36,610 bases of DNA from a virus (taxonomy: Duplodnaviria > Caudoviricetes), in IMG/VR virus record IMGVR_UViG_3300027732_000062, positions 1 through 36,610 of that record; one strand, written 5' to 3'. A program made the translations under genes and the position numbers. Within the stretch, counting starts at the first letter, position 1, and each line of letters opens with the position of its first letter. Positions 1 to 35,918 of this stretch are shown piece by piece. Below the pieces are notes generated by a model. It saw only the letters and a list, made by a program, of their open reading frames with translations. It was not told where the DNA came from and made no database searches.

Positions 1-21
1 TGAATTTTTAAAATTAGATTA

Positions 22-285
22 ATGGCAAAAAAACAAATAGAAAAATATATTCCAACAGATGAAGAATTACAATGTAGTTATATTTGTCACAAGAATGATT
101 TAGCTTATGTTATACAGCCAATAAAAGATTCAAAGAAGTATAAGGTAATTAAGTTTCAAATATCAAATAGATTACAAGTACACACTTTAAAAGATAATAT
201 ACAAGACTTAGAATTTACAGAATACGATGCATTAAAAAAAACAATGGAACTTTACACACAACATTCAAAAAGATTTAACAAATGA
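22..285 (+). CDS. Hypothetical phage protein (87 aa)
   Basis: ORF; near-identical to 31550..31813. Confidence 0.8.
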   Translation: MAKKQIEKYIPTDEELQCSYICHKNDLAYVIQPIKDSKKYKVIKFQISNRLQVHTLKDNIQDLEFTEYDALKKTMELYTQHSKRFNK

Positions 286-530
286 CAACATTACAATATT
301 ACGACAATGAAGATAATAAAAGAAGATTAGAAGAATTAAAACCTAAAGATACAATAGTAGAAAGCGTTATAGAACAATTTAAACAACGTTCTGAAGTAGG
401 AATAAAAAAATACAATACAACATTAGATAGAACAGATTTAACACGCTTAGAATGGCTACAACATCTTCAGGAAGAATTATTTGATGCCAGCCTTTATATC
501 GAAAAATTAAAACAATATGAAAGTAAATAA
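282..530 (+). CDS. Small all-alpha protein, possibly MazG-like/NTP pyrophosphohydrolase family
   Basis: RSEVGIKKYNTTLDRTDL..EWLQHLQEELFDASLY, with an EExxD motif; C-terminal part shared with 31838..32245. Confidence 0.5.
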   Translation: MTTLQYYDNEDNKRRLEELKPKDTIVESVIEQFKQRSEVGIKKYNTTLDRTDLTRLEWLQHLQEELFDASLYIEKLKQYESK

Positions 531-648
531 AAAAGAAATTATAGTTAGATTATTAAAACAAATTTATGATTTAATAGATTATAATTTAGAATTAAAAAAA
601 GAAAGAGAAGAACTTGAAAAGAAATTATTAAAATATGACAAAGAGTAA
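517..648 (+). CDS. Hypothetical 43-aa protein, haplotype A only
   Basis: Manual translation MKVNKKEIIVRLLKQIYDLIDYNLELKKEREELEKKLLKYDKE; overlaps both neighbours; absent from copy B. Confidence 0.6.
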   Translation: MKVNKKEIIVRLLKQIYDLIDYNLELKKEREELEKKLLKYDKE

Positions 649-769
649 ACAATCACCACTTCAAAGAATAAATAGAATAATAGACTTCAACTGGAAAAGA
701 GGTAATAATAAAGAATCAGTTAATGAAGTGTATCGGAAAATAATTAATCAAAGGCTACTTAAACAGTAG
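635..769 (+). CDS. Hypothetical 44-aa basic protein
   Basis: Manual translation MTKSKQSPLQRINRIIDFNWKRGNNKESVNEVYRKIINQRLLKQ; frame conserved at 32232..32366. Confidence 0.7.
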   Translation: MTKSKQSPLQRINRIIDFNWKRGNNKESVNEVYRKIINQRLLKQ

Positions 770-778
770 CTTTTTTTT
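751..778 (+). terminator. Intrinsic terminator
   Basis: GCTACT-TAAAC-AGTAGC followed by T8. Confidence 0.85.
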
Positions 779-780
779 AT

Positions 781-830
781 GTTAAATATTTGTTAAAATG
801 TATTTTATGTTAAAAAGTTGTTTATATTTG
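781..830 (+). promoter_or_regulatory. Early (host sigma) promoter with upstream GTTAA-N6-GTTAA element
   Basis: GTTAAATATTTGTTAA-N26-TATATTTG (Bacteroidota -7 box TAnnTTTG). Confidence 0.8.
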
Positions 831-853
831 TATAACAATTTAAAACAAACATT

Positions 854-1063
854 ATGACAAAGCAAGAAATTATTGAAACATTAAGTAACTGCATTGAATT
901 ATCTAATCTATCAGAAAACGTTTATATGAGAAATAGACTAACTGAAGTTGCAGAAGCATTAATACAAGAATGGAATGATTCAGATGGTTATGAAGAACAA
1001 GTTAAACAGGTTCTTAATTACGATGAAACAATGAATAATTTAAATAATATAAAAATAAGATAA
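854..1063 (+). CDS. Hypothetical early protein (69 aa)
   Basis: First ORF after the promoter; conserved at 32454..32663. Confidence 0.8.
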   Translation: MTKQEIIETLSNCIELSNLSENVYMRNRLTEVAEALIQEWNDSDGYEEQVKQVLNYDETMNNLNNIKIR

Positions 1064-1266
1064 TGAACGAACAAGCATTAATAAAAATACAATCTAAAGT
1101 AATTGGATTAGATAGAGAATTACATAAATTAATAAATGAATTAATAAATGGGCAAAGTCTTTTAAGTGACGAACATTTAACTATTATGATTAATAGCACA
1201 GAACGTGAATTAAATGTTTACAATCATATTTTAAAGTTATTAATCTATAATCAAAACGTAAATTAA
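1063..1266 (+). CDS. Hypothetical protein (67 aa)
   Basis: TAATG-coupled ORF; conserved at 32663..32866. Confidence 0.8.
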   Translation: MNEQALIKIQSKVIGLDRELHKLINELINGQSLLSDEHLTIMINSTERELNVYNHILKLLIYNQNVN

Positions 1267-1979
1267 TGATAGTATTATTTGATGCAGATAGTTTGATATT
1301 TTCAAGCTGCTACAAGAAACGTGAAACAATAGAAGATGATGGATTCCACCATAACTTAGAAGATTCAATAGTAAAGTTTGATGAAGTGTTTATGAGTATA
1401 ATAAATCACTTAGAAGATATTTACGAAATCAATGAAGTAAAAACATTTTCAGGTTCTAAAGGTAATTTCAGAAAATACATTACACCGAAGTATAAAGCAA
1501 ATCGTGATTATAATAATTTGCCACCATTGTTAAATCAGATGCACGAATATGTTAAAGAACAATATGATTCTATTTGGGGTTATGGTTGTGAAACAGATGA
1601 TGTTGTAGCTAAATACTGGTACACACTTTCAAATGAAATAGGTCGTGATAATGTTATAATAGTAAGCATAGACAAAGACTATAAACAATTTCCTTGCTTG
1701 ATGTATAACTACCATATTAAACATAAATGTATTTATGATATATCAGAAGAAGAAGCACTATATAACTTCTATGAACAAATGATTATAGGTGATACTGCTG
1801 ACAACGTAAACTATTGCAAAGGATATGGTAAAAAGTACGCAGAAAAGTATTTAGTTGATTGTAAAACCAAATATGAATATACTAAAAAGATATACCAACT
1901 ATTTAAAGAAATACACAAAGGAAAAGCAAAGCAAAGATATATTGAATGTTGGAACTTATTAAAATTAAAAACAGAATGA
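1266..1979 (+). CDS. 5'-3' exonuclease/flap endonuclease (PIN-fold, T7 gp6-like)
   Basis: Motifs DADSL, GSKGNFR, YKANR, ETDD, SIDKD, GDTADN. Confidence 0.9.
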   Translation: MIVLFDADSLIFSSCYKKRETIEDDGFHHNLEDSIVKFDEVFMSIINHLEDIYEINEVKTFSGSKGNFRKYITPKYKANRDYNNLPPLLNQMHEYVKEQYDSIWGYGCETDDVVAKYWYTLSNEIGRDNVIIVSIDKDYKQFPCLMYNYHIKHKCIYDISEEEALYNFYEQMIIGDTADNVNYCKGYGKKYAEKYLVDCKTKYEYTKKIYQLFKEIHKGKAKQRYIECWNLLKLKTE

Positions 1980-2602
1980 AAGTAACAGATAAAATAACAA
2001 TAACAAACGAGGATAATATGCTTTTAATGGCACGTTACCCTGATAACTATTTTGATTTAGCAATAGTTGACCCTCCTTATGGGATTAATGTAAGCACAAG
2101 AGTTTTTAACGATGGTAAAGATTGGGATAATGAAATACCAACAAAAGAATATTTTGATGAATTATTTAGAGTTTCTAAAAATCAAATAATCTGGGGTGGC
2201 AATTACTTTTTAGATTATTTAAAAGCAACACCATCTTATATTATTTGGGATAAAAAAATGACTGACAAACATTTAATGTCAATGTCAGAATTTGCTTGGA
2301 CTTCTTTTACTACGAAAAATTTAATTTTTAGACAACCTCCCGTAGGAGATAGAGGGTTTTACAATATTGATGGTACAAGAATACACCCAACTCAAAAAAG
2401 CATAAAACTGTATGAGTACTGTTTATCAAAATACGCAAAGGAAGGCGATAAAATATTAGATACACATTTAGGTTCAGGTTCAATAGCAATAGCAGCACAC
2501 GATTATAAATATGAACTAACAGCTTGTGAATTAGATAAAGAATACTATGACAAAGCAATACAAAGAATAACAAACCATACAAATCAACAAAAGTTATTCT
2601 AA
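1976..2602 (+). CDS. DNA N6-adenine/N4-cytosine methyltransferase (beta class), haplotype A only
   Basis: DPPY precedes HPTQK and LDTHLGSGS; start taken at the ATGA overlap (1976). Confidence 0.92.
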   Translation: MKVTDKITITNEDNMLLMARYPDNYFDLAIVDPPYGINVSTRVFNDGKDWDNEIPTKEYFDELFRVSKNQIIWGGNYFLDYLKATPSYIIWDKKMTDKHLMSMSEFAWTSFTTKNLIFRQPPVGDRGFYNIDGTRIHPTQKSIKLYEYCLSKYAKEGDKILDTHLGSGSIAIAAHDYKYELTACELDKEYYDKAIQRITNHTNQQKLF

Positions 2603-2970
2603 TGGAATACTGCAATGACTTTAAATACGATTTAAAAGTAGGTCAGATAGGTGAACAACTATTAAACGAAATACTTACTTTAAAAACAATAGAAGTTAAA
2701 CGTGATAGCTGGATATATAAAAGTGGAAACATAGCAATAGAATATGAAAGCAGAAACAAACCATCAGGAATAGCAAAATCAGAAGCAGACTATTGGGCAA
2801 TTATATTTTCAGGTGATTACAAAGATGAAATAATCTTAATTATAAAAGCAAATAGACTAAAAGAAATTTGTAGAACATATTACAAAAAAGGAAACATAAA
2901 AACAATGGGTGATAATAACACTTCAAAATCAATACTAATACCAATAACAGAAATACTAAAATGGAAATAA
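2602..2970 (+). CDS. PD-(D/E)xK-like nuclease-fold protein
   Basis: GQIGE...IEVKRD...GNIAIEYESRNKPSGI...ADYW. Confidence 0.55.
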   Translation: MEYCNDFKYDLKVGQIGEQLLNEILTLKTIEVKRDSWIYKSGNIAIEYESRNKPSGIAKSEADYWAIIFSGDYKDEIILIIKANRLKEICRTYYKKGNIKTMGDNNTSKSILIPITEILKWK

Positions 2971-3485
2971 CACAAAGATTAAAAGAAATAATATTACAAG
3001 AAACAGACACAGATATAAACATAAGAACAAGAAAGAAAAACACAGTTGAAATAAGAAGTTTATATTGTAATATCTTAAAAGAATTAAAACCAAATAGAAC
3101 ACTACAATCAATTGGCGACACAGTAGATTTAAATCACGCTTCAGTAATTCATTCTTTAAAAATGTATGAAGTATATTCTAAAGATAATAAAGACTTAAAA
3201 AAGTTAAAAGATATTATAATGAGTCACTTTATAAAAGTAGATGAAAGACAAATAGAAGAACTTAATGAAGTAGAACAATTGCAGCAAAGAATCTATCAAT
3301 TAACATTTGACAAAGACAAATTAGAAATAGATTTAAGAAAACAAAAACAAATAAAAAGATATGACTTTGAAATAATAGAAAACTTAAACAATCTATTAGA
3401 AGAAACAAAAGATACAATGCAATATGAAATAATAAACGATAGACTAAAAGCATTTTACACAATGAATAAAAACATAAGACTATGA
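2961..3485 (+). CDS. DnaA C-terminal-like HTH DNA-binding protein with coiled coil
   Basis: TLQSIGDTVDLNHASVIHSLK resembles the DnaA domain IV signature. Confidence 0.65.
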   Translation: MEITQRLKEIILQETDTDINIRTRKKNTVEIRSLYCNILKELKPNRTLQSIGDTVDLNHASVIHSLKMYEVYSKDNKDLKKLKDIIMSHFIKVDERQIEELNEVEQLQQRIYQLTFDKDKLEIDLRKQKQIKRYDFEIIENLNNLLEETKDTMQYEIINDRLKAFYTMNKNIRL

Positions 3486-3580
3486 GAAAAGAAACAGAAA
3501 CATTTATAACTGCAGTAATAGTAGCATTTATAATAATAGTAACAATAATGAGTTTAATAACATCAATAATAATACTATGA
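3482..3580 (+). CDS. 32-aa single-TM peptide
   Basis: MRKETETFITAVIVAFIIIVTIMSLITSIIIL; ATGA-coupled at both ends. Confidence 0.65.
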   Translation: MRKETETFITAVIVAFIIIVTIMSLITSIIIL

Positions 3581-3771
3581 CACCAAAAGAACAAGCAGAA
3601 AACTATATGAAACTTAAAGCAGGTTACATATCAGCAAAAGAAAGAGCACAAATACTATATGATAAATATTCAATAGAATACAATAGACAATTAGTATCAG
3701 GTGATATGCAACAATCAGAACACTGGAAAGAAGTAGCACGAGAATTAAGTAAACTATATAAAAACAAATAA
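3577..3771 (+). CDS. Hypothetical protein (64 aa)
   Basis: ORF; conserved at 34555..34749. Confidence 0.75.
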   Translation: MTPKEQAENYMKLKAGYISAKERAQILYDKYSIEYNRQLVSGDMQQSEHWKEVARELSKLYKNK

Positions 3772-3772
3772 G

Positions 3773-3964
3773 ATGCCAGATATAACAATGTGTAGTGGTA
3801 ACAACTGCGAACTAAGTTCAACGTGTTACAGATATAAAGCAGAACCAAGTCAATATAGACAATCGTATTTTTGTAAACCACCAAATAATAATTTACAATG
3901 TGATTACTATTGGGAAATAAAAACTAAAGATGAAACAGAAGATAAAACCGATACACAAATTTAA
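3773..3964 (+). CDS. Small Cys-rich protein
   Basis: MPDITMC-x4-C-x5-CYRY...CDYYW; conserved at 35338. Confidence 0.75.
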   Translation: MPDITMCSGNNCELSSTCYRYKAEPSQYRQSYFCKPPNNNLQCDYYWEIKTKDETEDKTDTQI

Positions 3965-4067
3965 TGGTGGAATAGGTGCAACACTATGTAATACTTGTAG
4001 CGTAATAATATCCATAGGATTAACAAAAGAATTATACTGTAATAACTGTAAACCAAAAATAAAATGA
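3930..4067 (+). CDS. 45-aa zinc-finger protein
   Basis: Manual translation MKQKIKPIHKFNGGIGATLCNTCSVIISIGLTKELYCNNCKPKIK; two CxxC. Confidence 0.7.
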   Translation: MKQKIKPIHKFNGGIGATLCNTCSVIISIGLTKELYCNNCKPKIK

Positions 4068-4303
4068 AAGCAATATTAGAATTTAATCTACCTGAAGATA
4101 ACACAGAATATTTAGCAACAGTCAAAGCAATGGATATGGCTAACTTTATATTTGAATTGGTATATAATACAAGAAAAGGTTTAATCAATCAACTAAACGA
4201 TTCTATTACATCACAGTTTCAACAAGATGGTATAGAAATAGTCTTTGATAAAATATGTGAATTATTAGACCATCATAACATATCAATTGATGAACTGATA
4301 TAA
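4064..4303 (+). CDS. Hypothetical protein (79 aa)
   Basis: MKAILEFNLPED start; conserved at 35629. Confidence 0.8.
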   Translation: MKAILEFNLPEDNTEYLATVKAMDMANFIFELVYNTRKGLINQLNDSITSQFQQDGIEIVFDKICELLDHHNISIDELI

Positions 4304-4325
4304 ACAATAAACAAAAATGTTTATT
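4301..4325 (+). promoter_or_regulatory. Candidate late promoter upstream of terS
   Basis: TAAACAA-N13-TTATT, same spacing as four other late-gene sites. Confidence 0.55.
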
Positions 4326-4353
4326 TTTAATTTAATAATAATAACTTTTTTAA

Positions 4354-4647
4354 ATGGAAGATAAAAGAAAAAATAATGGTGGTCATAAATCTGCAGGTAG
4401 AAAAACTAAAGTAGAAGAAGCTAAAGTAAATAATATATTTATACAAGCATTAAAAGAATTGTATAGTAAAGATACTGAAGAAGAAACAAAGATTGCATTT
4501 GTAAAGAATACTTTAATGGATTCACAAAGAGGTCAATTGTTTATTGCAGAGCATATATTTGGTAAACCTAAAGAAACGATTGAAACTACACACAATCTAA
4601 ATGACTTTAATATAAAAGATATATTTCAAATTGATAAGTCTAAATAA
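4354..4647 (+). CDS. terS: Terminase small subunit
   Basis: Directly upstream of terL; NNGGHKSAGRK N-terminus and FGKPKE motif. Confidence 0.75.
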   Translation: MEDKRKNNGGHKSAGRKTKVEEAKVNNIFIQALKELYSKDTEEETKIAFVKNTLMDSQRGQLFIAEHIFGKPKETIETTHNLNDFNIKDIFQIDKSK

Positions 4648-5836
4648 GAAATACAATCTACTTGGTTCTAATAGTAGGTATTTTGTAATAACAGGTGGAA
4701 GGGGTTCAGGGAAATCATATTCTTTGAACTCATTTCTATTGCTATTAACTTATGAAGTAGGACACGTTATATTGTTTACAAGATATACTTTAACTTCTGC
4801 AAATGTTTCTATTATACCTGAATTTATAGATAAGATTGAAACAGCTAATTTAAGCCACGAATTTTATATTACTAAAGACGAAATCATAAATAAAAAAACA
4901 GGGTCTAAGATTCTATTTAAAGGTATTAAAACAAGTAGTGGAACACAAACTGCAAGTTTAAAATCATTAGCAGGAGTTACAACTTGGGTATTAGATGAAG
5001 CAGAAGAATTAAACGATGAAGAAATATTTGAAAAGATAGACTTCAGTATAAGAACTAAAGGAATTCAGAATAGAGTTTTATTAGTATTGAATCCAGCAAC
5101 TAAAGAACATTTTATTTATAAGAAATTCTTTGAAGATAAAGGAGTTCAAGCAGGAAGTAATTTAATCAAAGGTGATACAACGTACATTCATACAACTTAT
5201 GAAGATAACATTGAAAACTTATCTGAATCATTTATTAATCAAATAGAGAATATAAAGAAACGTAGACCTGAAAAGTATAAGCATCAAATCTTAGGTGGGT
5301 GGTTAGATAAAGCAGAAGGAGTTATATTTACTAACTGGACTATAGGCAAGTATGAACAAGTAGGAACATCAGTATTTGGACAAGATTTTGGTTTCAGTAA
5401 TGACCCAACAACATTAGTAGAATGTAATATAGACGCTTCTAATAAACGAATTTATATAAATGAACGTTTCTATTTACAAGCATTAACAACGAGTCAAATA
5501 CACAACTTAAATAAACAACATTGTTTAGATAGTTTAATAGTTGCAGATAGTGCTGAACCAAGACTAATATCTGAGTTACAATCGGCAGGTTTAAATATAG
5601 TACCTGCAATTAAAGGTCAAGGTTCAGTTACTTATGGAATAGCATTACTACAAGATTATGATTTGATTATAAGTCCAGAATCAATTAATTTAATTAAAGA
5701 ATTAAATAACTACAGTTGGTTAGAAAAGAAATCAAATACACCTATTGATAATCATAATCATTTAATAGATGCTTTAAGGTATGCTGTAGGTTACCAATTA
5801 GAGAACCCAAACAAAGGAAACTATTTTATATATTAA
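4631..5836 (+). CDS. terL: Terminase large subunit (PBSX/SPP1-like), TTG start
   Basis: Walker A GGRGSGKS, Walker B VLDEAEE, LNP, nuclease motifs GQDFG, ADSAEP, HLIDALRY. Confidence 0.97.
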   Translation: MISLNKKYNLLGSNSRYFVITGGRGSGKSYSLNSFLLLLTYEVGHVILFTRYTLTSANVSIIPEFIDKIETANLSHEFYITKDEIINKKTGSKILFKGIKTSSGTQTASLKSLAGVTTWVLDEAEELNDEEIFEKIDFSIRTKGIQNRVLLVLNPATKEHFIYKKFFEDKGVQAGSNLIKGDTTYIHTTYEDNIENLSESFINQIENIKKRRPEKYKHQILGGWLDKAEGVIFTNWTIGKYEQVGTSVFGQDFGFSNDPTTLVECNIDASNKRIYINERFYLQALTTSQIHNLNKQHCLDSLIVADSAEPRLISELQSAGLNIVPAIKGQGSVTYGIALLQDYDLIISPESINLIKELNNYSWLEKKSNTPIDNHNHLIDALRYAVGYQLENPNKGNYFIY

Positions 5837-5850: not shown

Positions 5851-6000
5851 ATGAGCTACGGACAAATGATTGCCACAATACAATGTTATTTACATCACGT
5901 TAAGAATGTAGAAGTAATGATTAACTTACCAAGAAATATAGGTGAAATTAAAAAGATGCAGCAAATGTATTTAATAGCTTCTGCTTATTTGAATAGTTAA
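5851..6000 (+). CDS. Hypothetical 49-aa protein
   Basis: Manual translation MSYGQMIATIQCYLHHVKNVEVMINLPRNIGEIKKMQQMYLIASAYLNS. Confidence 0.6.
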   Translation: MSYGQMIATIQCYLHHVKNVEVMINLPRNIGEIKKMQQMYLIASAYLNS

Positions 6001-6045
6001 AGTTTTGTTAAATGTATTTTATTTAAAACATAATGATTATATTTG
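5996..6045 (+). promoter_or_regulatory. Early-type promoter
   Basis: GTTAAAGTTTTGTTAA-N26-TATATTTG. Confidence 0.8.
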
Positions 6046-6067
6046 CTTATAATTAAAAACAAAAAAT

Positions 6068-6232
6068 ATGAAAACATTTAAAGTTGAAGGTTGGTATCGT
6101 TACAGTAACGCTAACGAAAAAGATTATATATATGAATCTATAACTTGTACAAGCGTTCAAGTAGCATTACAAATATTTACAGAGAAGTATTCTAATATAA
6201 ACTTCTTTAAAATATATACAACGGAAAATTAA
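6068..6232 (+). CDS. 54-aa accessory (moron) protein
   Basis: MKTFKVEGWYRYSNANEKDYIYESITCTSVQVALQIFTEKYSNINFFKIYTTEN; has its own promoter and terminator. Confidence 0.75.
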   Translation: MKTFKVEGWYRYSNANEKDYIYESITCTSVQVALQIFTEKYSNINFFKIYTTEN

Positions 6233-13376: not shown

Positions 13377-13967
13377 ATGAGAATAGTTGAATTAATAATA
13401 GACGAAACTGAAAAGTTAAACGGAATAGAGGCGGTGTCAATCGTTGAATTTCCTGCCATAGAGTCCAATTTCATTGCATTAAGCGAACATTTAGAACTTG
13501 CAAAAGTAGATGATGAAAAAAAGATTTTAATGGGAGCTGCATTAATACCAAATAAAAACATTTATCGTAGAAATGGTAATGATGAATATTATATTTTCTT
13601 TTCAGAAGATACAGTACGCAAAGCAAGTGAATTGTTTTTAATGAATTCAAATCAAAACAACGCTACATTAGAACACGAAAAGAAACTAAAGGATTTAACT
13701 GTAGTTGAATCTTGGATAGTTGAAGATGTAGATATGGATAAATCTAAAAAGTATGGCTTAAATGCACCCGTAGGCACTTGGATGGTATCTATGAAAGTAA
13801 ACAATGAAGCTATATGGAATGACTTTGTTAAAACAGGAAAAGTTAAAGGCTTCAGCATCGAAGGATATTTTTCGGACAAATTAGAAATGAGTTTAGAAAT
13901 TGCAAAAGAACAAGAACTATTAGATAAAATAAAATCAATTATAAATAATGCTGAAATTAATAAATAA
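13377..13967 (+). CDS. Prohead maturation protease (XkdF-like serine protease)
   Basis: GAALIP, NATLEH, VVESW, PVGTW, VKGFSIEG motifs; upstream of scaffold and capsid. Confidence 0.8.
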   Translation: MRIVELIIDETEKLNGIEAVSIVEFPAIESNFIALSEHLELAKVDDEKKILMGAALIPNKNIYRRNGNDEYYIFFSEDTVRKASELFLMNSNQNNATLEHEKKLKDLTVVESWIVEDVDMDKSKKYGLNAPVGTWMVSMKVNNEAIWNDFVKTGKVKGFSIEGYFSDKLEMSLEIAKEQELLDKIKSIINNAEINK

Positions 13968-13971
13968 AATT

Positions 13972-14157
13972 ATGGGACAAAAAACAAGTTCACCAAAAGG
14001 TGGTAAAAGAGGTTGCGTATGTAAAGACGGAACATACAGTTCAAAATGTTGCAATGGAGAATTATCAGAACAAGGAATTGGTGCTTTGACAAATCAACAA
14101 GTTGTTGTAACAACTAACACCGATAACACAAGAACTATAACTAATGTAAGTTCGTAA
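13972..14157 (+). CDS. Small Cys-rich head-operon protein (61 aa)
   Basis: MGQKTSSPKGGKRGCVCKDGTYSSKCCNGELSEQGIG; start taken at ATG 13972. Confidence 0.7.
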   Translation: MGQKTSSPKGGKRGCVCKDGTYSSKCCNGELSEQGIGALTNQQVVVTTNTDNTRTITNVSS

Positions 14158-14160: not shown

Positions 14161-14190
14161 ATAACAAATATAAATAAAAGTAATTAATAA
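14161..14190 (+). promoter_or_regulatory. Candidate late promoter
   Basis: ATAACAA-N13-TAATT. Confidence 0.5.
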
Positions 14191-14202: not shown

Positions 14203-14580
14203 ATGACAACTGAAAAATTAGTAATGAATTCTTTGTTTGGAAAAACAGAATTAGCATCACAAAAAATTGAATTAGCTTTAGTTGATGATTTTAATAAAGA
14301 CTATCAAAAACTAAATGATGTTTTTTTTAAAGCAGAAACAAACGTAGTTGATTACAATGAATTATCAAATAAAATAGCAAGTGATTTTAATTCAGCAGGT
14401 TCAGTTTTATTAAGTGCAAATAAAAAATTTGAAGATGTATTAAAATCTGCAAAAGATTTAGGAATTGATTTACCTGCACAAATAAAAAATCAAGGTGAAG
14501 CATTAAAACTTTATGCTAAAGATATAGATTATTATGTTACTAAATTAAAAAGTAATAAAATAGCTTTAAGAAACGGATAA
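14203..14580 (+). CDS. Putative internal head (cargo) protein 1 with scaffold-like N-terminal leader
   Basis: MTTEKLVMNSLFGKTELASQKIELALVDD...AKDLGI; paralogue of 16812..17159. Confidence 0.6.
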   Translation: MTTEKLVMNSLFGKTELASQKIELALVDDFNKDYQKLNDVFFKAETNVVDYNELSNKIASDFNSAGSVLLSANKKFEDVLKSAKDLGIDLPAQIKNQGEALKLYAKDIDYYVTKLKSNKIALRNG

Positions 14581-14605
14581 TAATAAATAAGTAAATTAAG
14601 TAAAT

Positions 14606-15145
14606 ATGAATGTAATTAATGAAATCAAAACTCTTTTGGGTATGGAAGTAAAACTTGCTCAAATGAAACTTAAAGATGGTGTTACAGTAATCGAAGCAGA
14701 TGCTTTTGAACCTGAACAAGCTGTTTTTATAGTAAACGGTGAAGAACGTATTGCAATGCCAGTTGGTGAATACGAACTTGAAGATGGAATGATTTTAGTA
14801 GTAGCCGTTGAAGGTATTATTGCTGAAATTAAAGAAGCTGCAGTTGTTGAAGAAGAAGCACCTGAAACAGAAGTTGAAGTTGAAGTTGAAGCACAAGCTG
14901 AAACAGTTGCAACTCCTAAAAGAATTGTTGAATCAGTTTCTAAAGAAATGTTCTTTGCTGAAATTGAAAAACTAAGAACTGAAATTGCTGAATTAAAATC
15001 AGTAAAACAAGAATTAAGTTCAGAAGTTGTTGTTGAACCATTAACACACTCACCTGAAGTTAAAAATGAAGTTAAACTAAATAAAATATCAACTAACCGC
15101 CAAATGACGACACAAGATATCGTTATGGCAAAACTTTTTAATTAA
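14606..15145 (+). CDS. Capsid scaffolding protein
   Basis: Highly acidic 179 aa directly upstream of the capsid gene; PVGEYELEDG motif. Confidence 0.78.
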   Translation: MNVINEIKTLLGMEVKLAQMKLKDGVTVIEADAFEPEQAVFIVNGEERIAMPVGEYELEDGMILVVAVEGIIAEIKEAAVVEEEAPETEVEVEVEAQAETVATPKRIVESVSKEMFFAEIEKLRTEIAELKSVKQELSSEVVVEPLTHSPEVKNEVKLNKISTNRQMTTQDIVMAKLFN

Positions 15146-15151
15146 TAAATT

Positions 15152-16096
15152 ATGGCTACTACAACTAATGTGACGACTACGTATGCTGGAGAATTTGCTG
15201 GAAAATACATTTCTGCTGCATTATTATCAGGTTCTACTATTGCAAATGGTGGAATCGAAGTTAAACCAAATGTAAAATACAAAGAGGTTATCAAGAAAAT
15301 TGCTACTGATTCAATCGTAGCTAATGCAACTTGTGATTTTACTTCTACTTCTACAGTTACTTTGACTGAAAGAATTTTGACCCCTGAGGAATTCCAAGTA
15401 AATCTTGAATTTTGTAAAAAAACGTTTAAATCGGATTGGGAAGCCGTTCAAATGGGATATTCTGCATTTGATAACTTGCCACCTGCTTTTGCTGATTTTA
15501 TTTTAGCACACGTTGTTGCTAAAGTTGCAGAAAAAATGGAAAACAATATTTGGAAAGGTGTTAATGCTACTGCAGGTGAATTTGATGGATTTGTAACATT
15601 GGCTACTGCTGATGCTGGAGTTATTGATGTAGCTTCTCCTATTGCTGGTGGAATTACTGCTGCAAATGTTATCGGTGAACTTGGGAAACTTGTTGATGCT
15701 ATTCCTGCTGCATTGTACGGAAAAGAAGATTTATATCTTTATATTTCACAATCTGTAGCTCGTGATTATGTTCGTGCTCTTGGTGGATTTGGTGCAAGTG
15801 GATTAGGTGCTAACGGTACAAACGCACAAGGTACACAATGGTTTAACAATGGTTCACTTTCTTTTGATGGTGTTAAAATCTTTGTTGCAAATGGATTGGC
15901 TAACGATTATATGATGGCTGCTCAAAAATCTAACTTATATTTTGGAACAGGTTTATTAGCTGACCACAACGAAGTTAAATTAATTGATTTAGCAGATATT
16001 GACGGTTCAGAAAATGTAAGAGTTGTAATGAGATTTACAGCTGGTGTTCAATACGGAATTAGTTCTGATATCGTTCTTTACACACCTGCAGCATAA
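15152..16096 (+). CDS. Major capsid protein
   Basis: 314 aa Ala/Gly/Thr-rich, follows the scaffold, ends at a terminator. Confidence 0.88.
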   Translation: MATTTNVTTTYAGEFAGKYISAALLSGSTIANGGIEVKPNVKYKEVIKKIATDSIVANATCDFTSTSTVTLTERILTPEEFQVNLEFCKKTFKSDWEAVQMGYSAFDNLPPAFADFILAHVVAKVAEKMENNIWKGVNATAGEFDGFVTLATADAGVIDVASPIAGGITAANVIGELGKLVDAIPAALYGKEDLYLYISQSVARDYVRALGGFGASGLGANGTNAQGTQWFNNGSLSFDGVKIFVANGLANDYMMAAQKSNLYFGTGLLADHNEVKLIDLADIDGSENVRVVMRFTAGVQYGISSDIVLYTPAA

Positions 16097-16107
16097 TTAT
16101 TATAAAT

Positions 16108-16129
16108 AGGGGTGTAAAAACCCCTTTTT
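16108..16129 (+). terminator. Intrinsic terminator after the capsid gene
   Basis: AGGGGT-GTAAAA-ACCCCT followed by TTTT. Confidence 0.8.
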
Positions 16130-16186
16130 ATTAATTTAAAAAAGTAGATAACTACTTGATTATTAACAATTTAAATATAAAACGGG

Positions 16187-16729
16187 ATGCCTTGTGATAT
16201 TTCTTTGGGACGTGCTGAACAATGCAAAAATAGCGTTGGAGGCTTAAGAGCTGTATACTTCATTAATTGGGGTGATGCAACAGCTGTAACTTATTCTGCA
16301 ACTGCAGGACAAGAAGATGTTATAACTGGATTAGGTGGAACTCCTATTGGTTATAAATATGAATTGAAGGGAACTTCAACTTTTGAACAAACTGTAACAA
16401 GTTCAAGAGAAAACGGAACTACATTTGTAGACCAAAAATTAAGTTTGAGTTTAGCTAAATTAACTATTGCAGATAATAAGCAACTTAAATTACTTAGTTA
16501 CGGAAGACCTCAAGTTATTGTTGAAGATAACAATGGTTCTTTCTTTATGGCAGGTTTAACAAAAGGTATGGACTTAGTAACTGCAACTATTTCAAATGGT
16601 GCTGCTATGGGTGATATGAGTGGGTATAAAATGGAATTTCAAGGAATGGAGCCTGTTGCTGCTAACTTTGTAACTGGACCATTAACTACAGGTATTTTAG
16701 CTTCTATTGTTGAAGGTACTGTAGCATAA
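16187..16729 (+). CDS. Major tail (tube) protein
   Basis: 180 aa; CKNSVGGL, SRENGTTF, VIVEDNNG, GAAMGDMSGY. Confidence 0.7.
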   Translation: MPCDISLGRAEQCKNSVGGLRAVYFINWGDATAVTYSATAGQEDVITGLGGTPIGYKYELKGTSTFEQTVTSSRENGTTFVDQKLSLSLAKLTIADNKQLKLLSYGRPQVIVEDNNGSFFMAGLTKGMDLVTATISNGAAMGDMSGYKMEFQGMEPVAANFVTGPLTTGILASIVEGTVA

Positions 16730-16749
16730 TTTTATTATTTGTTTTTTTT

Positions 16750-16785
16750 AAAAGGGGTTTATGGTTAAAGTAAATCCCTTTTTTT
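16750..16785 (+). terminator. Intrinsic terminator
   Basis: AAAAGGGGTTTA...TAAATCCCTTTT followed by a T run. Confidence 0.8.
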
Positions 16786-16811
16786 AAACAATAACTTTTA
16801 AATATAAAAAA

Positions 16812-17159
16812 ATGAGTGAATTAAAAACGGTAATGAATAAATTATTCAAAACTGAATTATCAATTCAAAAAGTTGAACTTGCTTTAATTGATGATATTGA
16901 AAAAATATTAGATGGTGCATTATCTAAACAAAGAAATTTAATTGCTTCAGGTTTAAAAATATCTGAAGGATTATTAGCATTAACTTCTGATTATCAGAAA
17001 ACATTAAGTATGGCTATTCAAGCAGCAAATATGGCAAAAGAATTAGGTATTACTGATGCTGAAAAATTGTTTAGAGTTAGAGCATCTGAAGCAAAAGATT
17101 ATCTTGATGTTGTAGGTAAAGTTTCTAATCAAATTGATTCTGCTTTACGTTCTATATAA
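16812..17159 (+). CDS. Putative internal head (cargo) protein 2 with scaffold-like N-terminal leader
   Basis: MSELKTVMNKLFKTELSIQKVELALIDD...AKELGI; paralogue of 14203..14580. Confidence 0.6.
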   Translation: MSELKTVMNKLFKTELSIQKVELALIDDIEKILDGALSKQRNLIASGLKISEGLLALTSDYQKTLSMAIQAANMAKELGITDAEKLFRVRASEAKDYLDVVGKVSNQIDSALRSI

Positions 17160-17512: not shown

Positions 17513-17536
17513 TTTTTTTGTTTTAAATTGTTTTGA

Positions 17537-17586
17537 CAAATATATAAAACTTTATAATACAAAACTTACTTTAACAAATATTTAAC
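17537..17586 (-). promoter_or_regulatory. Early-type promoter, minus strand
   Basis: Reverse complement reads GTTAAATATTTGTTAA-N26-TATATTTG. Confidence 0.8.
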
Positions 17587-17590
17587 TATT

Positions 17591-17620
17591 AAAACAATTC
17601 TTATTTATATTTATTATAAT
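17591..17620 (+). promoter_or_regulatory. Candidate late promoter
   Basis: AAAACAA-N13-TTATTATAAT. Confidence 0.6.
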
Positions 17621-17632: not shown

Positions 17633-18046
17633 ATGATAATTTTAAAAGAGCAAATAGAATCACAAACTATAAAATTCATACCGAGATTTTACTCGGCAGA
17701 TACTCTTATTTTAAGAAACGAAACAACTAATATTTCAGTTACATTAAATCCTACATTTGTAGTTGATGGATATTATTTAAAATGTGATTTAGCTTTAGAT
17801 TTAAAAGAAAATACTTTTTATAATTTAACTATTTTAAGTACACCTTTACCTTTTACTGCTGACAATGGAATTAAAACAGCTGATAATAATATATTAACTG
17901 CAGATATGACACAATTTAGTAGTGAAAATTCTTTAATTTATAGAGATAAAATCTTTTGTACAAATCAAAACAAGAATAACTATACAGTTAATGAGAATCA
18001 ATACATAGAGAACGTTACAACAAACGAATTTAAAATATATGAGTAA
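17633..18046 (+). CDS. Putative head-closure/neck protein with three TAD repeats
   Basis: 137 aa, upstream of the portal; TADNGIK-TADNNIL-TADM. Confidence 0.5.
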   Translation: MIILKEQIESQTIKFIPRFYSADTLILRNETTNISVTLNPTFVVDGYYLKCDLALDLKENTFYNLTILSTPLPFTADNGIKTADNNILTADMTQFSSENSLIYRDKIFCTNQNKNNYTVNENQYIENVTTNEFKIYE

Positions 18047-19817
18047 TATATCAATTGTAAATTTAAGTGCTTATACAAGCCCTACAATACAAGAAAACAA
18101 GAAAAATAACTATATTGAATATGGTGCTGATAATAATTACTTTCAATACTTAATTGATAGGTATTTATATAGTGCTACAAATGGTGCTATTATTACAGGT
18201 GTTTCTAATATGATTTATGGTAAAGGATTAGATGCTTTAGATTCTAATAAAAAGCCTAATGAATATGCACAAATGAAATCTATTATAAAAGATTCTGATT
18301 TAAAGAAAATAGCTTTAGAACGCAAACTTTTAGGAATGGCTGCTATGCAAGTTGTAATGGAAAAGAAACAAGTTAAACAAGTGCTTCATTTCCCTATGCA
18401 TACATTAAGAGCAGAAAAATGCAATGACAAAGGACAAATAGAAAATTGGTATTATCACCCTGATTGGACTAAAAAGAAACCAAGTGAAGAATTAAAACGT
18501 ATTCCTGCTTTTGGTTTTGGTAACGGAAATGAAGTTGAACTTTATATTTTACATCCTTACGTTAGTGGATTTGATTATTATAGTCCAATAGATTATAGTG
18601 GTTCTTTGCCTTATGCTTTGCTTGAAGAAAACATTGCAGATTATCAAATTAATGATTGCCAGAACGGTTTTAGTGGAACTAAAGTTATCAATTTTAACAA
18701 CGGTATTCCTACTGAAGAAATGCGTGATAAAATGAAACGTGATGTACTTGGTAAATTAACAGGTGCAAGAGGTGAAAAAGTTATCATTGCTTTTAATGCT
18801 AATGCTGAAAGTAAAACTACAGTTGAAGATTTACCTTTAAATGATGCTCCTGCACATTACGAATATTTAAGTAAAGAATGTTTTGAAAAATTAATTGTAG
18901 GTCATAGAGTTACTTCACCTATGTTATTAGGAATTCGTGAAACAGGTGGTGGCTTAGGTAACAATGCAGACGAAATAAAGACTGCTACGCTATTATTTGA
19001 CAACATAGTAATAAAACCATATCAGTTAGAAATAACTGATGCCTTAGATGAAATTTTAGCTATTAATAATATATCATTAAAGTTATATTTTAAAACTATC
19101 CAACCATTAGAATTTGTAGATATATCAGGAATGAACGCAGAAACAACAGAAGAAGAAACTGGTGTTAAAATGAGTTCAGATAGTAACGCTGATTTATTAA
19201 TTGAAAAAGGAGAAACTTTAGGTGATGAATGGTTTTTAATTGATGAAACTGAAGTAGATTATGAAACTGAAGATGAATTAGATTTAGAAATTGAAACTTT
19301 AAATAATAAAAAGAAAAGCACATTATCTAAAATGTGGCAATTTATTACTTCTACAGGAACTGCAAAACCAAACGCTAAAAGTCCTGAGCAAGATAAAGTT
19401 ATTGATGGTGTTCAATTCGTTACAAGATATGTTTATAGTGGTGATTTAACAGGTGAAAGACAATTTTGCAATAAAATGTTAAGAGCAGATAAAGTATATC
19501 GTAAAGAAGATATAGTTGCAATGGAAACACAAGTTGTTAATTCAGGATTCGGTCCTAAAGGTTCTGATTCTTATTCTATATGGTTATACAAAGGCGGAGC
19601 AAGATGCAATCATAAATGGTTAAGAAGAACTTATGCTAATTTTGATGGTGTTAAAATTGACCCTACAAATCCAAATGCAAAAGCTATTAGTTCTGCAACT
19701 GCTGAAAAATATGGTTATAGAATTAGAAACGATAAAGAAGTAGCAATGAAACCAAGTGATATGCCTACAAAAGGATACACACAAGAGTATTGGGATAAAA
19801 TGGGATATACAAATTAA
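18039..19817 (+). CDS. Portal protein with a C-terminal extra (MuF-like) domain
   Basis: YGADNNYFQYLID, GHRVTSPMLLGI, VIKPYQ core; C-terminal RQFC...KGGARCNHKW. Confidence 0.85.
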   Translation: MSNISIVNLSAYTSPTIQENKKNNYIEYGADNNYFQYLIDRYLYSATNGAIITGVSNMIYGKGLDALDSNKKPNEYAQMKSIIKDSDLKKIALERKLLGMAAMQVVMEKKQVKQVLHFPMHTLRAEKCNDKGQIENWYYHPDWTKKKPSEELKRIPAFGFGNGNEVELYILHPYVSGFDYYSPIDYSGSLPYALLEENIADYQINDCQNGFSGTKVINFNNGIPTEEMRDKMKRDVLGKLTGARGEKVIIAFNANAESKTTVEDLPLNDAPAHYEYLSKECFEKLIVGHRVTSPMLLGIRETGGGLGNNADEIKTATLLFDNIVIKPYQLEITDALDEILAINNISLKLYFKTIQPLEFVDISGMNAETTEEETGVKMSSDSNADLLIEKGETLGDEWFLIDETEVDYETEDELDLEIETLNNKKKSTLSKMWQFITSTGTAKPNAKSPEQDKVIDGVQFVTRYVYSGDLTGERQFCNKMLRADKVYRKEDIVAMETQVVNSGFGPKGSDSYSIWLYKGGARCNHKWLRRTYANFDGVKIDPTNPNAKAISSATAEKYGYRIRNDKEVAMKPSDMPTKGYTQEYWDKMGYTN

Positions 19818-24131: not shown

Positions 24132-24139
24132 TATATTTG
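24132..24139 (+). promoter_or_regulatory. TAnnTTTG -7 box upstream of the HNH/ninG genes
   Basis: TATATTTG, preceded by palindrome TTAACA-CGAT-TGTTAA (24105-24120). Confidence 0.5.
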
Positions 24140-24142
24140 TAT

Positions 24143-24703
24143 ATGAAGAAATGTGTAAAATGTAATATAGAAAAAAATTTAACCGAATTTATAAAACAAA
24201 AAAGAAATAAAGATGGTTATAGAAATGATTGTAAAATTTGTGCAAAAGAATATTTTAAGGAATATTATTTAAAAAATTTAGAAAATATAAAAACTAAAAC
24301 AAAAGAATATCAATTAAATAATTTAGAAAAAATAAAAGAATATAATTTTAATAATAAAGTAAATAGAAATAATAGAGATAAAAAAAGAAAATTAGAAAAT
24401 CCATTGTTTAAATTAAGATGTAATATAAGAACGAGAATATGTAGTTCAATAAAAAATAATGGTTATACTAAAAAATCAGTATCACATAAAATATTAGGAT
24501 GTAGTTTTGAAAAATTTAAACAACATTTAGAAAAACAATTTACTAAAGGTATGACTTGGGAAAATGCTGGTAAATGGCATCTTGACCATATTTATCCTGT
24601 ATCATTAGCAAAGACAGAAGAAGAACTTATAAAGTTAAATCATTATACTAATTTTCAACCTTTATGGGCAATTGACAATATTATTAAAGGAAATAAGATA
24701 TAA
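24143..24703 (+). CDS. HNH-type endonuclease with N-terminal zinc ribbon
   Basis: CVKC...CKIC; WHLDHIYP...NFQPLWAIDN. Confidence 0.85.
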   Translation: MKKCVKCNIEKNLTEFIKQKRNKDGYRNDCKICAKEYFKEYYLKNLENIKTKTKEYQLNNLEKIKEYNFNNKVNRNNRDKKRKLENPLFKLRCNIRTRICSSIKNNGYTKKSVSHKILGCSFEKFKQHLEKQFTKGMTWENAGKWHLDHIYPVSLAKTEEELIKLNHYTNFQPLWAIDNIIKGNKI

Positions 24704-29132: not shown

Positions 29133-29644
29133 CAAAGCATCACAAAGAATGGGTTGAGGTGATACATAAACTTGGAGAACACGATATGGCTGAGGATATT
29201 GTCCAAGAAAGTTACATTGCATTAATAAAATACGCTGATGCAACAAAGTTAATTGATTCACAAGGATTAGTTCGCAAAGGATATATGTTTTTCACTTTAC
29301 GTTCTTTATATTATCAGTTTTACAATAAAAAGAAAAAGATTAATAAAGTATCTTTTGATGATTGTTGGGAATTATTTGATGATTCAAACATAGAAGAACA
29401 AAAAGCGTATAATGATATATGTTTATTGATTGATGAAGAAATAGATAACTGGCATTGGTACGATAAGAAGCTGTTTAAATTATATCGTGATACAGATATG
29501 TCTATGCGTGATATAGCAAAAGAAACAAATATAAGTTTAATATCAATATTTCATTCAATTAAAAACTACAAAGAAATATTAAATACAAAGTTTCAACAAG
29601 ATTACGATGATTATATTTCAAATGACTATAATAATATTTATTGA
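29102..29644 (+). CDS. ECF-like sigma-70 factor (probable late transcription)
   Basis: Region-2-like AEDIVQESYI and region-4 HTH MSMRDIAKETNISLISIFHSIK. Confidence 0.8.
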   Translation: MDNYKWLEQVAKHHKEWVEVIHKLGEHDMAEDIVQESYIALIKYADATKLIDSQGLVRKGYMFFTLRSLYYQFYNKKKKINKVSFDDCWELFDDSNIEEQKAYNDICLLIDEEIDNWHWYDKKLFKLYRDTDMSMRDIAKETNISLISIFHSIKNYKEILNTKFQQDYDDYISNDYNNIY

Positions 29645-30420
29645 TGAAAAAATGTAGTAAATGCAAAATAGAAAAGTCTTATGATAATTTTAACAAAGAC
29701 AAAACAAAAAAAAATGGAATAACATCAAGTTGTAAAGATTGTCATAAAATATATAATGATAATAAAAGAGGTTATTTAACAGAAGAAGAAAAAAGAAAAA
29801 GATTAGAAAGAGGTAAATTAAGTCGTTCTGAATATTTAAAAAAATATAACATAAATAATAAAGAACGTATTTTAGATTATGCAAAAAAATATAGAGAAAT
29901 CAATTCAGATAAAATAAAAGAATATCATAAAAATAATAAGTATAAAAGAAAAATTAGAGATGAAAAAAATAAAGAAACTTTAAATAATTATAAAAGAATT
30001 TGGTATCAAAATAATAAGGATAAAGCAAAAAAATATAATGAAAGCAATAAAGAAAAAAGAAATTGTCAATTAACCAATAGAAGAAAAATTGATTATTTAT
30101 TTAAATTAAAATGTACTATAAAATCTTTAATATTTTCTTCAATTAAAAAAAATGGTTATTCTAAAAAAACAAAAACTTATCAAATATTAGGATGTTCATT
30201 TGAAGAATTTAAACAACATTTAGAAAGACAATTTACAAAAGGTATGAATTGGGATAATCAAGGACAATGGCATTTAGACCATATATACCCAGTATCTTTA
30301 GCAAAAGATGAAGAAGAATTAATAAGATTAAATCATTACACTAATTTTCAACCTTTATGGGCTATTGATAATTTAAAAAAAGGAAATAAAATAATAGAAC
30401 AACAATTAATACTAATTTAA
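29644..30420 (+). CDS. HNH-type endonuclease with zinc ribbon, paralogue of 24143
   Basis: CSKC...CKDC; WHLDHIYP...NFQPLWAIDN. Confidence 0.85.
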   Translation: MKKCSKCKIEKSYDNFNKDKTKKNGITSSCKDCHKIYNDNKRGYLTEEEKRKRLERGKLSRSEYLKKYNINNKERILDYAKKYREINSDKIKEYHKNNKYKRKIRDEKNKETLNNYKRIWYQNNKDKAKKYNESNKEKRNCQLTNRRKIDYLFKLKCTIKSLIFSSIKKNGYSKKTKTYQILGCSFEEFKQHLERQFTKGMNWDNQGQWHLDHIYPVSLAKDEEELIRLNHYTNFQPLWAIDNLKKGNKIIEQQLILI

Positions 30421-31203: not shown

Positions 31204-31550
31204 ATGTAATACAACAAGAATATTTAAAATCAGTAATATTAAGTCAATTATTACTTGAATCAAATGAATCATTATTTTTCACACAACAGTATAAGCAACA
31301 AATTAAACACAAAATAAATAGTTTAAATAAAGACTTAGAAGAAACAGTAAGAAAAGAATATAGTATAATTTACAATACAGACCCAGAAACAACTACAAAC
31401 ATTTTAAATAGCATTGAATCAATTGTAAAGAAACTACAAACAAGTTCAATAGATGAATTAGTATTTATTAATGCAGTAATTGACAAGTATAAAGAAAACA
31501 AAGAATGGTTTAAAACGTATGGTGAAACTGAATTTTTAAAATTAGATTAA
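31194..31550 (+). CDS. Hypothetical protein (118 aa)
   Basis: ORF; its last codons also form window bases 1-22. Confidence 0.75.
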   Translation: MEINVIQQEYLKSVILSQLLLESNESLFFTQQYKQQIKHKINSLNKDLEETVRKEYSIIYNTDPETTTNILNSIESIVKKLQTSSIDELVFINAVIDKYKENKEWFKTYGETEFLKLD

Positions 31551-31813
31551 TGGCAAAAAAACAAATAGAAAAATATATTCCAACAGATGAAGAATTACAA
31601 TGTAGTTATATTTGTCACAAGAATGATTTAGCTTATGTTATACAGCCAATATTAAATTCAAAGAAGTATAAAGTAGTTAAGTTTCAAATATCAAATAGAT
31701 TAGAAGTGCATACTTTAAAAGATAATGTACAAGATTTAGAATTTACAGAATACGATGCATTAAAAAAAACAATGGAACTTTACACACAACACTCAAAAAG
31801 ATTTAACAAATGA
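31550..31813 (+). CDS. Hypothetical protein, allele of 22..285
   Basis: Near-identical translation. Confidence 0.8.
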   Translation: MAKKQIEKYIPTDEELQCSYICHKNDLAYVIQPILNSKKYKVVKFQISNRLEVHTLKDNVQDLEFTEYDALKKTMELYTQHSKRFNK

Positions 31814-31837
31814 AAATAAGCGAAAAAAAAATTTAAT

Positions 31838-32245
31838 ATGAAATATCAATTCAGACCCTATGCAACTATGCAACCTACTGTAGTAACATTAACAGGTAAA
31901 GTTTATGAAAAAGGAGAACATCCTTTATATACAGAACATAAAATTATTGAGGTTGTTGATGAACAAGGTGAAATGCATTATGCTTTTGAAGATGAACTTA
32001 AATCAGATGAAGTAGAGAAACAACAAAAAGTTTATAGTGAGGAAGATATGGAAGAAATGATAGATACAATAGTAGAATCAGTTATAAACCAATTTAAACA
32101 ACGTTCTGAAGTAGGAATAAGAAAATACAATACAACATTAGATAGAACAGATTTAACACGCTTAGAATGGCTACAACACGCACAAGAAGAAGCAATGGAT
32201 TTAATATTATATTTAGAAAAATTAAAACAATATGACAAAGAGTAA
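31838..32245 (+). CDS. MazG-like protein allele with a different, longer N-terminus
   Basis: Shares DTIVESVI..QFKQRSEVGI onward with 282..530. Confidence 0.55.
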   Translation: MKYQFRPYATMQPTVVTLTGKVYEKGEHPLYTEHKIIEVVDEQGEMHYAFEDELKSDEVEKQQKVYSEEDMEEMIDTIVESVINQFKQRSEVGIRKYNTTLDRTDLTRLEWLQHAQEEAMDLILYLEKLKQYDKE

Positions 32246-32366
32246 ACAATCAGCACTACAAAGAATAAATAGAATTATAGACTTTAACTGGAAACGAGGT
32301 AATAACAAAGAATCAGTTAATGAAGTGTATCGGAAAATAATTAATCAAAAGCTACTTAAACAGTAG
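32232..32366 (+). CDS. 44-aa protein, allele of 635..769
   Basis: Manual translation. Confidence 0.7.
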   Translation: MTKSKQSALQRINRIIDFNWKRGNNKESVNEVYRKIINQKLLKQ

Positions 32367-32375
32367 CTTTTTTTT
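32347..32375 (+). terminator. Intrinsic terminator (copy B)
   Basis: AAAAGCTACT-TAAAC-AGTAGCTTTT. Confidence 0.85.
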
Positions 32376-32380
32376 ATTTA

Positions 32381-32430
32381 GTTAAATATTTGTTAAAATG
32401 TATTTTATGTTAAAAAGTTGTTTATATTTG
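32381..32430 (+). promoter_or_regulatory. Early promoter (copy B)
   Basis: Identical to 781..830. Confidence 0.8.
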
Positions 32431-32453
32431 TATAACAATTTAAAACAAACATT

Positions 32454-32663
32454 ATGACAAAGCAAGAAATTATTGAAACATTAAGTAACTGCATTGAATT
32501 ATCTAACTTATCAGAAAACGTTTATATGAGAAATAGACTAACTGAAGTTGCAGAAGCATTAATAGAAGAATGGAACGAATCAGATGCTTATGATGAAGTA
32601 GTTAAACAGGTTCTTAATTACGATGAAACAATGAATAATTTAAACAATATAAGAATAAGATAA
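32454..32663 (+). CDS. Allele of 854..1063
   Basis: Near-identical translation. Confidence 0.8.
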   Translation: MTKQEIIETLSNCIELSNLSENVYMRNRLTEVAEALIEEWNESDAYDEVVKQVLNYDETMNNLNNIRIR

Positions 32664-32866
32664 TGAACGAACAAGCATTAATAAAAATTCAATCTAAAGT
32701 AATTGGATTAGATAGAGAATTACATAAATTAATCAATGAATTAATAAATGGACAAAGTCTTACAAGTGACGAACATTTAACTATTATGATTAATAGCACA
32801 GAACGTGAATTAAGTATTTACAATGATATTTTAAAGTTAATAATTAACAATTGGAACGAAAACTAA
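32663..32866 (+). CDS. Allele of 1063..1266
   Basis: Near-identical; C-terminus differs. Confidence 0.8.
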   Translation: MNEQALIKIQSKVIGLDRELHKLINELINGQSLTSDEHLTIMINSTERELSIYNDILKLIINNWNEN

Positions 32867-34749: not shown

Positions 34750-34750
34750 A

Positions 34751-35335: not shown

Positions 35336-35337
35336 TT

Positions 35338-35868: not shown

Positions 35869-35918
35869 ACAATAAACAAAAATGTTTATTTTTAATTTAA
35901 TAATAATAACTTTTTTAA

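Follow-up and report, generated by a model that had tools for sequence, protein, structure and literature searches.

Two small genes in the head module of a tailed phage, read from IMG/VR virus record IMGVR_UViG_3300027732_000062 (36,610 nucleotides, the whole of which is called the window here), belong, judging from their sequences, to an unnamed family of putative cargo proteins. Each open reading frame (ORF), named by its first position (14203 and 16812), opens with a leader of two parts, a helix and then a motif, and continues into a body. The motif, [VI][EK]L-[ASG], is likely a cut site of the prohead protease, and we are fairly confident both that it is the protease site and that the cargo proteins enter the prohead. 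With less assurance, we favor the wider proposal that the genes are optional cassettes whose products would be docked by the leader and freed by the protease, with bodies that are probably injected as allele-specific counter-defense factors. The features on which this argument depends are the following.

13377..13967, plus strand: prohead protease of the XkdF type (PF14550, E = 6.8e-16, residues 40-164)
13491-13502 and 13881-13892, plus strand: candidate cut motifs of the protease, flanking its catalytic domain
14203..14580, plus strand: cargo gene 1, slot B, 125 amino acids; leader helix at 14206-14238
14245-14256 and 14266-14277, plus strand: motifs of cargo gene 1; predicted helical-hairpin body from 14275
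14606..15145, plus strand: scaffold-like protein, 179 amino acids, matching the C-terminal half of the protease-scaffold fusion phrog_24921
14648-14659 (with an N-terminal helix) and 15008-15019, plus strand: scaffold motifs; conserved C-terminal helix at 15107-15139
15152..16096, plus strand: major capsid protein, HK97 fold, cut motif not enriched; 34% to Nonlabens phage P12024S
16187..16729, plus strand: conserved structural ORF with a PHROG match (phrog_19091), putatively the tail tube
16812..17159, plus strand: cargo gene 2, slot D, 115 amino acids, an optional insert; leader, then body from 16881
16851-16862 and 16872-16883, plus strand: motifs of cargo gene 2, preceding the body
18039..19817, plus strand: portal protein (phrog_33693), whose core is separated from a modular C-terminal extension by a motif at 19164-19175

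An earlier note on this DNA aligned the last 13 residues of the scaffold-like protein (15104-15142) with the first 13 of both cargo proteins. Its coordinates and translations are correct and the observation is real: without gaps, 7 of 13 residues agree in ORF 14203 and 6 of 13 in ORF 16812. Against the scaffold tip the two starts score 35 and 23, and the next best start among 105 window ORFs (at least 40 amino acids, ATG, both strands) scores 11. Among all 9,820 13-mers of plus-strand ORFs they rank second and fourth, with the scaffold itself first; the match of ORF 16812 is modest taken alone, because it stands only fourth, below an internal 13-mer of ORF 19824 that scores 24. The KTEL..ELAL.DD block and the AK[DE]LGI turn said to be common to both proteins are present, and BLASTP aligns the two products over residues 1 to 32 only. 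Across 92 distinct scaffold C-termini, the 11-residue core of the proposed scaffold motif is conserved and its opening Met is not. ORF 14606 is presumably the scaffold, given its position and a capsid protein that has no N-terminal extension.

Relatives came from capsid-protein searches (227 loci) and, with the P12024S genome, make 228 loci, of which 216 have a full capsid gene. Some loci are the same contig fetched twice, and counts are therefore on distinct sequences; the loci extend 8 to 10 kb from the capsid gene, so that cargo copies farther away would escape. An iterative hidden Markov model (HMM) of the leader, run over 1,808 ORFs of 80 to 220 amino acids on both strands, found 141 leader ORFs, none of them on the minus strand. 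A further 10 were added by leader prefix after being seen, for 151 occurrences and 124 distinct proteins. These occupy four slots: A, after the protease; B, before the scaffold; C, between scaffold and capsid; and D, after ORF 16187. Leader-bearing ORFs vary in number among relatives from zero to three per head module, as had been anticipated: among 93 complete head modules, a separate cargo gene is missing from 45, present once in 27, twice in 15 and three times in 6, and at least one of the 45 (locus L011) carries a protease-fused body, recognized by eye. On a quick capsid tree of 87 rows, cargo genes come or go at least 13 times. When 1.84 billion representatives were searched with a profile, 604 clusters (50% identity) were returned at E values up to 1e-10. 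This is the number used here, as the 2,899 counted at E = 0.001 are inflated because the family profile also matches generic coiled coils; false matches include a designed bundle at 42.5 bits and one low-complexity sequence among the top 150. A 1,172-residue match with nine matched stretches was considered as a polyprotein and rejected as low-complexity sequence. No description of the cargo family was found in a literature search, subscription papers and supplements being outside its reach.

The motif carries the best evidence for processing in the head. [VI][EK]L and then a small residue stand once or twice at the end of the leader; the E position tolerates K, D, Q, N and A, and the cut is placed behind the Leu because this is the near-invariant residue (Leu or Met). 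Relative to shuffles, and with the reservation that the sequences are related and the counts therefore not independent, the motif is enriched 4.8-fold in the scaffold, 4.9-fold in the N-terminal part of the protease, 3.5-fold in the protease tail and 2.5-fold in the portal extension, compared to 1.1-fold in the capsid and 0.2-fold in the portal core, and none seen against 12.3 expected in the catalytic part of the protease. Tail proteins show no enrichment, and the 16-fold figure for the leader itself is partly circular. By segment, the motif occurs in 52 of 73 scaffold N-segments (6.1 expected), in 57 of 96 scaffold C-segments (4.7 expected) and in 28 of 66 segments behind the protease domain (0.7 expected; control segment, 3 of 75). 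It borders the protease on both sides, follows the scaffold N-helix, precedes the scaffold C-arm and stands right behind the portal core. The leader cut site that the earlier note supposed is thus a probable one, common to the protease-associated head proteins. ORF 13377 has the family feature expected of the enzyme, matching PF14550 at 58.8 bits (cutoff, 24); G.S[IV]EG is present in all 123 full-length protease relatives and a T.EH pattern in 96 of the 123, and His100 and Ser160 of ORF 13377 would be the catalytic residues, as expected for the clan. The placement of the motif is like that described for the prohead-protease sites of T4 and of giant phages, whose propeptides contain redundant sites (PMC9026906), but the rule here is a different one. 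A literature search found no cutting rule for XkdF-type proteases.

Bodies also occur fused to the protease tail, behind a helix and motif, at seven distinct loci found by HMM and two more found by eye. A body in this position would enter the head with the protease, and the fusions are therefore the strongest indirect sign of an internal location. By eye, two of the fused bodies correspond to alleles that stand alone at other loci. No longer fused form turned up among 7,996 candidates, in a search that must be insensitive given the fusions present in the fetched loci. A second domain of ~100 amino acids is fused to many proteases behind a similar motif (e.g., L035:5877-6776, L040 and L144); it matches halovirus and Roseobacter phage head genes and has no Pfam name. 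Longer protease tails add DUF3721 and DUF5824. The portal extension (19164-19817; ~215 amino acids) likewise stands behind a motif, is missing from some lineages and has a helix that, by eye, resembles the Trp-type leaders described below.

The leader helix often resembles the scaffold-tip family, strongly so in the lineage of the window; strict mimicry goes beyond the data. A profile of 45 distinct scaffold C-terminal 11-mers gave 193 matches of at least 12 bits in 1,939 distinct plus-strand ORFs, compared to 5 in a shuffle control (504,607 positions). Most of the 193 are scaffolds, and most of the others lie at residues 2 to 5 of small ORFs. Seven of the 12 leader types, the two of the window included, stand out from a null made of helices taken from the bodies (p ≤ 0.005). 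Of the non-Trp representatives in the library, 66 of 103 lie above the 99th percentile. The proposed likeness to the scaffold C-terminal helix thus extends beyond generic amphipathic helices in seven types, and five types do not match the scaffold profile. Leader types are mostly lineage-restricted (e.g., 25 of 25 and 12 of 12).

Behind the motif, bodies of 68 to 141 amino acids form 90 clusters at 50% identity among the 124 proteins and constitute one family, in which cross-validated forward sequences beat reversed ones in 52 of 52 and 72 of 72 cases. The idea that the payloads are unrelated proteins must be abandoned in favor of one fold family. The ORF 14203 protein is predicted to fold as a helix (residues 2-86), a turn and a second helix (92-124), with a mean predicted local distance difference test score of 91.5; a fold search with this hairpin returned only uncharacterized phage proteins from BFVD. 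WXG100 (Esx) proteins have a central W-x-G turn in a hairpin of about 100 residues. Membership of that family was rejected, as the turn here, AK.LG, lies at two thirds of the body and Trp makes up 0.3% of residues; Esx folds matched the hairpin only at E values above 2. A tape-measure origin of the body likewise found no support beyond the controls (scores up to 21 bits, with 16 for a reversed control and a cargo median of 48). Net charge is strongly acidic in marine slot-C bodies (median, -12) and near neutral in other bodies, which makes one shared role as a DNA mimic unlikely. Body alleles are under purifying selection, with a ratio of nonsynonymous to synonymous polymorphism (pN/pS) of 0.24 within alleles over 37 non-independent pairs.

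Lineages exchange bodies, with the swap at the motif codons. Of 20 relatives compared, 19 have a slot-B body that is 16 to 28% identical, against 71 to 96% for the leader and 77 to 99% for the scaffold, and 6 of 21 multi-member body clusters cross scaffold lineages, standing behind different leaders. Locus L238 has a scaffold 56% and a protease 54% identical, yet 300 of 318 bases are the same from the motif codons on, and L240 has the body of the window behind a third leader. Contigs from a single lake sample (run X3) diverge from the window at 14253, at 14271 (twice) and at 14279 and return to it at 14593-14597, in joints whose short sides are 21 to 38 bases at 90% likeness and may come from relatives; others from this run skip the whole of cargo gene 14203. 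In run X4 a stretch of 332 bases is replaced, and the 16812 insert is skipped in three runs. The window has Endonuclease VII-like genes at 24137-24703 and 29641-30420, and relatives L011, L050 and L065 have other insertions, some endonuclease-like by eye, in or adjoining cargo slots. Such endonuclease-like insertions may help to move cassettes. The ORF 16187 homologue is tandemly duplicated in L004, L010 and L208, where slot D would be.

In its working, the cargo system is like the capsid-targeted internal proteins of phage T4, without being a member of that family. T4 proteins IPI-III have a capsid targeting sequence that is cut by the prohead protease gp21 (PMC9026906, PMC3012670, PMC12373910); the internal proteins are described as N-terminally tagged, injected and each blocking one GmrSD variant (PMC12373910, PMC3012670). 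From what these sources describe, both systems place small nonessential genes in hotspot slots and give their products a common N-terminal tag; in both, the repertoire varies among relatives and a short motif recurs in core proteins and protease. In contrast, the T4 tag has 10 residues and is cut after L/I-X-E, as opposed to leaders of 18 to 40 residues here, with an invariant Leu/Met and a replaceable E; the T4 protease is of the gp21 type, and the one here is an XkdF-type PF14550 protein in a genome of about 31.5 kb. Mature Ip1-3 are described as sharing no homology, whereas here all bodies have a single hairpin fold and some are also carried by the protease. The cargo proteins thus share with the T4 family an N-terminal leader on small, number-variable proteins, and share neither its tag and cut rule nor its unrelated mature parts. 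The CpmB protein of SaPI1 has a copy of the C-terminal amphipathic helix of the 80alpha scaffold and binds the same capsid site (PMC5644958). A second protein that may copy this short scaffold helix would be the point of likeness; the CpmB copy is described as C-terminal, satellite-encoded and redirecting capsid size, whereas here the putative capsid-binding helix is N-terminal, lies in the phage's own head module and is followed by a likely cut site. In phage P1, the anti-defense proteins DarA and Hdf are reported on the inner capsid surface and lost on DNA ejection, so that coat-docked cargo exists (PMC12810830). No sequence or fold link to them was found, and the abstract of that paper mentions no exchange of leader cassettes. 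Closer to the window, P12024S (Inhavirus) has the same head gene order, a capsid protein at 34% and the same motifs in its fused protease-scaffold and portal, but neither its genome nor the 7 loci of its group yielded a leader or body gene.

Two further features bear on expression.

14164..14185, plus strand: two-part element resembling a late promoter, also present before the protease and ORFs 6334 and 17633
6294, 13336, 14164 and 17594: positions of this element, before four structural genes

The pattern was drawn from the window after the fact. It stands before 27 of 41 slot-B genes, before 22 of the 76 scaffolds that have no slot-B gene and before 1 of 46 scaffolds behind slot B. Its presence before slot B and near absence from the scaffolds behind suggest that the scaffold-capsid unit likely begins with slot B. 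No such element precedes slots A, C and D, which would depend on read-through. A scan for sigma-70 promoters stayed at chance level (27 against 24.8), and a sigma-like protein is encoded at 29102. One RNA run covers scaffold and capsid and barely covers the cargo genes, in contigs that cannot rank expression.

We propose that cargo proteins would be made late and docked in the assembling head by the leader helix, and that the XkdF-type protease would then cut them free at [VI][EK]L-[ASG] during maturation. The hairpin would be kept in the head and injected with the DNA; mature, at ~100 amino acids and two helices wide, it would pass the tail and act on a variable host target. That the helix uses the capsid pocket of the scaffold C-terminus rather than the scaffold core is somewhat short of an even call. 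Passage through the tail and counter-defense against a variable host target, by analogy with T4 internal proteins, is a tentative step that we hold a little less firmly. Optional presence, discrete conserved alleles and exchange nonetheless fit an arms race better than a structural role. The boldest version is doubtful: that an N-terminal mimic of the scaffold helix loads hundreds of polymorphic effectors of the same fold, with the protease-site codons as the crossover point, so that the population would hold a library of injected, allele-specific anti-defense or competition factors, under the first cutting rule for an XkdF-type protease.

Several results weigh against this proposal. Five leader types, four Trp-bearing ones from slot C and one from slot B, fail the scaffold profile; the PEV type is among the failures, and none of the 42 Trp representatives passes. 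The expectation that each leader would follow the scaffold tip of its own genome found no significant support: the own scaffold is best in 2 of 17 leader-lineage units (p = 0.086, or p = 0.315 without the lineage of the window). The scaffold N-terminus has an identical helix-plus-motif layout and is weakly matched by the scaffold-tip profile, and the helix may therefore bind the core, not the coat. The bodies have no match in Pfam or PHROG and none near the cutoff in NCBIfam, and the hairpin fold search found nothing in PDB at E = 0.001. Gene 16812 has no promoter-like element (0 of 7 slot-D genes do), the nearest cultured relative, P12024S, has motifs but no cargo gene, and the counter-defense step is proposed by analogy.

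The layout of the scaffold N-terminus and the failure of leaders to track their own scaffold tip speak for an unlikely alternative, which differs only in the docking site: the leader could be a core-targeting propeptide, like the scaffold N-helix with its cut site, and its likeness to the scaffold tip convergent. A scaffold-N profile is likewise passed by some leader types (p = 0.004 for one of them), and T4 tags are described as targeting the core (PMC9026906). Yet the scaffold-C profile outperforms the scaffold-N profile, with 66 against 11 of the 103 non-Trp representatives, and the slot-B leader of the window lineage scores 23.5 against its own scaffold group and 1.7 to 9.3 against seven others. 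The proteins could instead be auxiliary scaffolding or head-lining proteins in the manner of CpmB or DarA/Hdf: a coiled-coil stalk with a helix that binds the capsid would tune assembly, size or stability and do nothing in the host. CpmB is built in this way, as a helical dimer domain that bears a scaffold-like helix (PMC5644958); the cargo structure is predicted as one long hairpin of antiparallel helices; and slot B stands at the head of the scaffold-capsid unit. A part that fits the capsid should follow the capsid, however, and this explanation is quite improbable in view of the many modules without a separate gene, the repeated gains or losses on the capsid tree, the 90 body clusters, and the transfer of bodies between lineages whose capsids differ.

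A single sample contains many alleles alongside empty slots, which would suit weapons between phages: the tag would load the protein into the prohead of any related phage sharing the cell, and the body, once injected, would exclude or disable genomes without the matching allele. The common fold, with its discrete and conserved alleles, might also be read as a recognition system. We give this very little weight, since the locus maps showed no linked immunity gene next to the cassettes and mostly lineage-restricted leaders would limit cross-loading. Least probable of all is that the bodies act late in the cytoplasm, as protease-released decoys or inhibitors, or form an ejection conduit, rather than being accessory injected factors. 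Phage proteases reportedly trigger CBASS, according to a 2026 preprint (PMC12991175), and the bodies have a weak feature-level likeness to tape-measure fragments; against this, a conduit should be essential, yet about half of the modules have no gene for it, and the tape-measure scores given above stay far from the cargo median.

The phage itself has a genome of ~31.5 kb. The ends of the contig overlap at 93 to 96% identity, and it is about 1.16 genomes long, probably with two strains joined; gene insertions differ between the repeated ends (1-5042 and 31529-36610). The head module runs from the PF14550 protease through a Cys-rich ORF, 14203, the scaffold-like ORF, the capsid gene, 16187, 16812 and 17633 to the portal.

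13948..14157, plus strand: small Cys-rich conserved ORF without a leader, between the protease and the cargo slot

In relatives the ORF has variable C-terminal extensions (44 to 199 amino acids). Nonlabens phage P12024 is the only cultured match of the capsid protein (34%), from which we infer a Flavobacteriia host; a host search gave only two short matches in GTDB bins and no prophage. All six runs that hold at least half of the region's words are from freshwater. A repeat of ~80 bases occurs in both orientations at 17517-17597, 774-849, 5983-6074 and 32372-32449; one copy lies within the optional 16812 insert, before two minus-strand ORFs. The repeat is possibly an early promoter.

Under the proposal favored here, the large unnamed family (604 clusters) would consist of factors that virions of lake and sea phages likely deliver, and its defined variable part would allow tests of one allele at a time. 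The motif also offers a cutting rule for XkdF-type proteases that can be put to the test. If the tag works, its 25 residues would allow proteins to be loaded into the head of a small phage.

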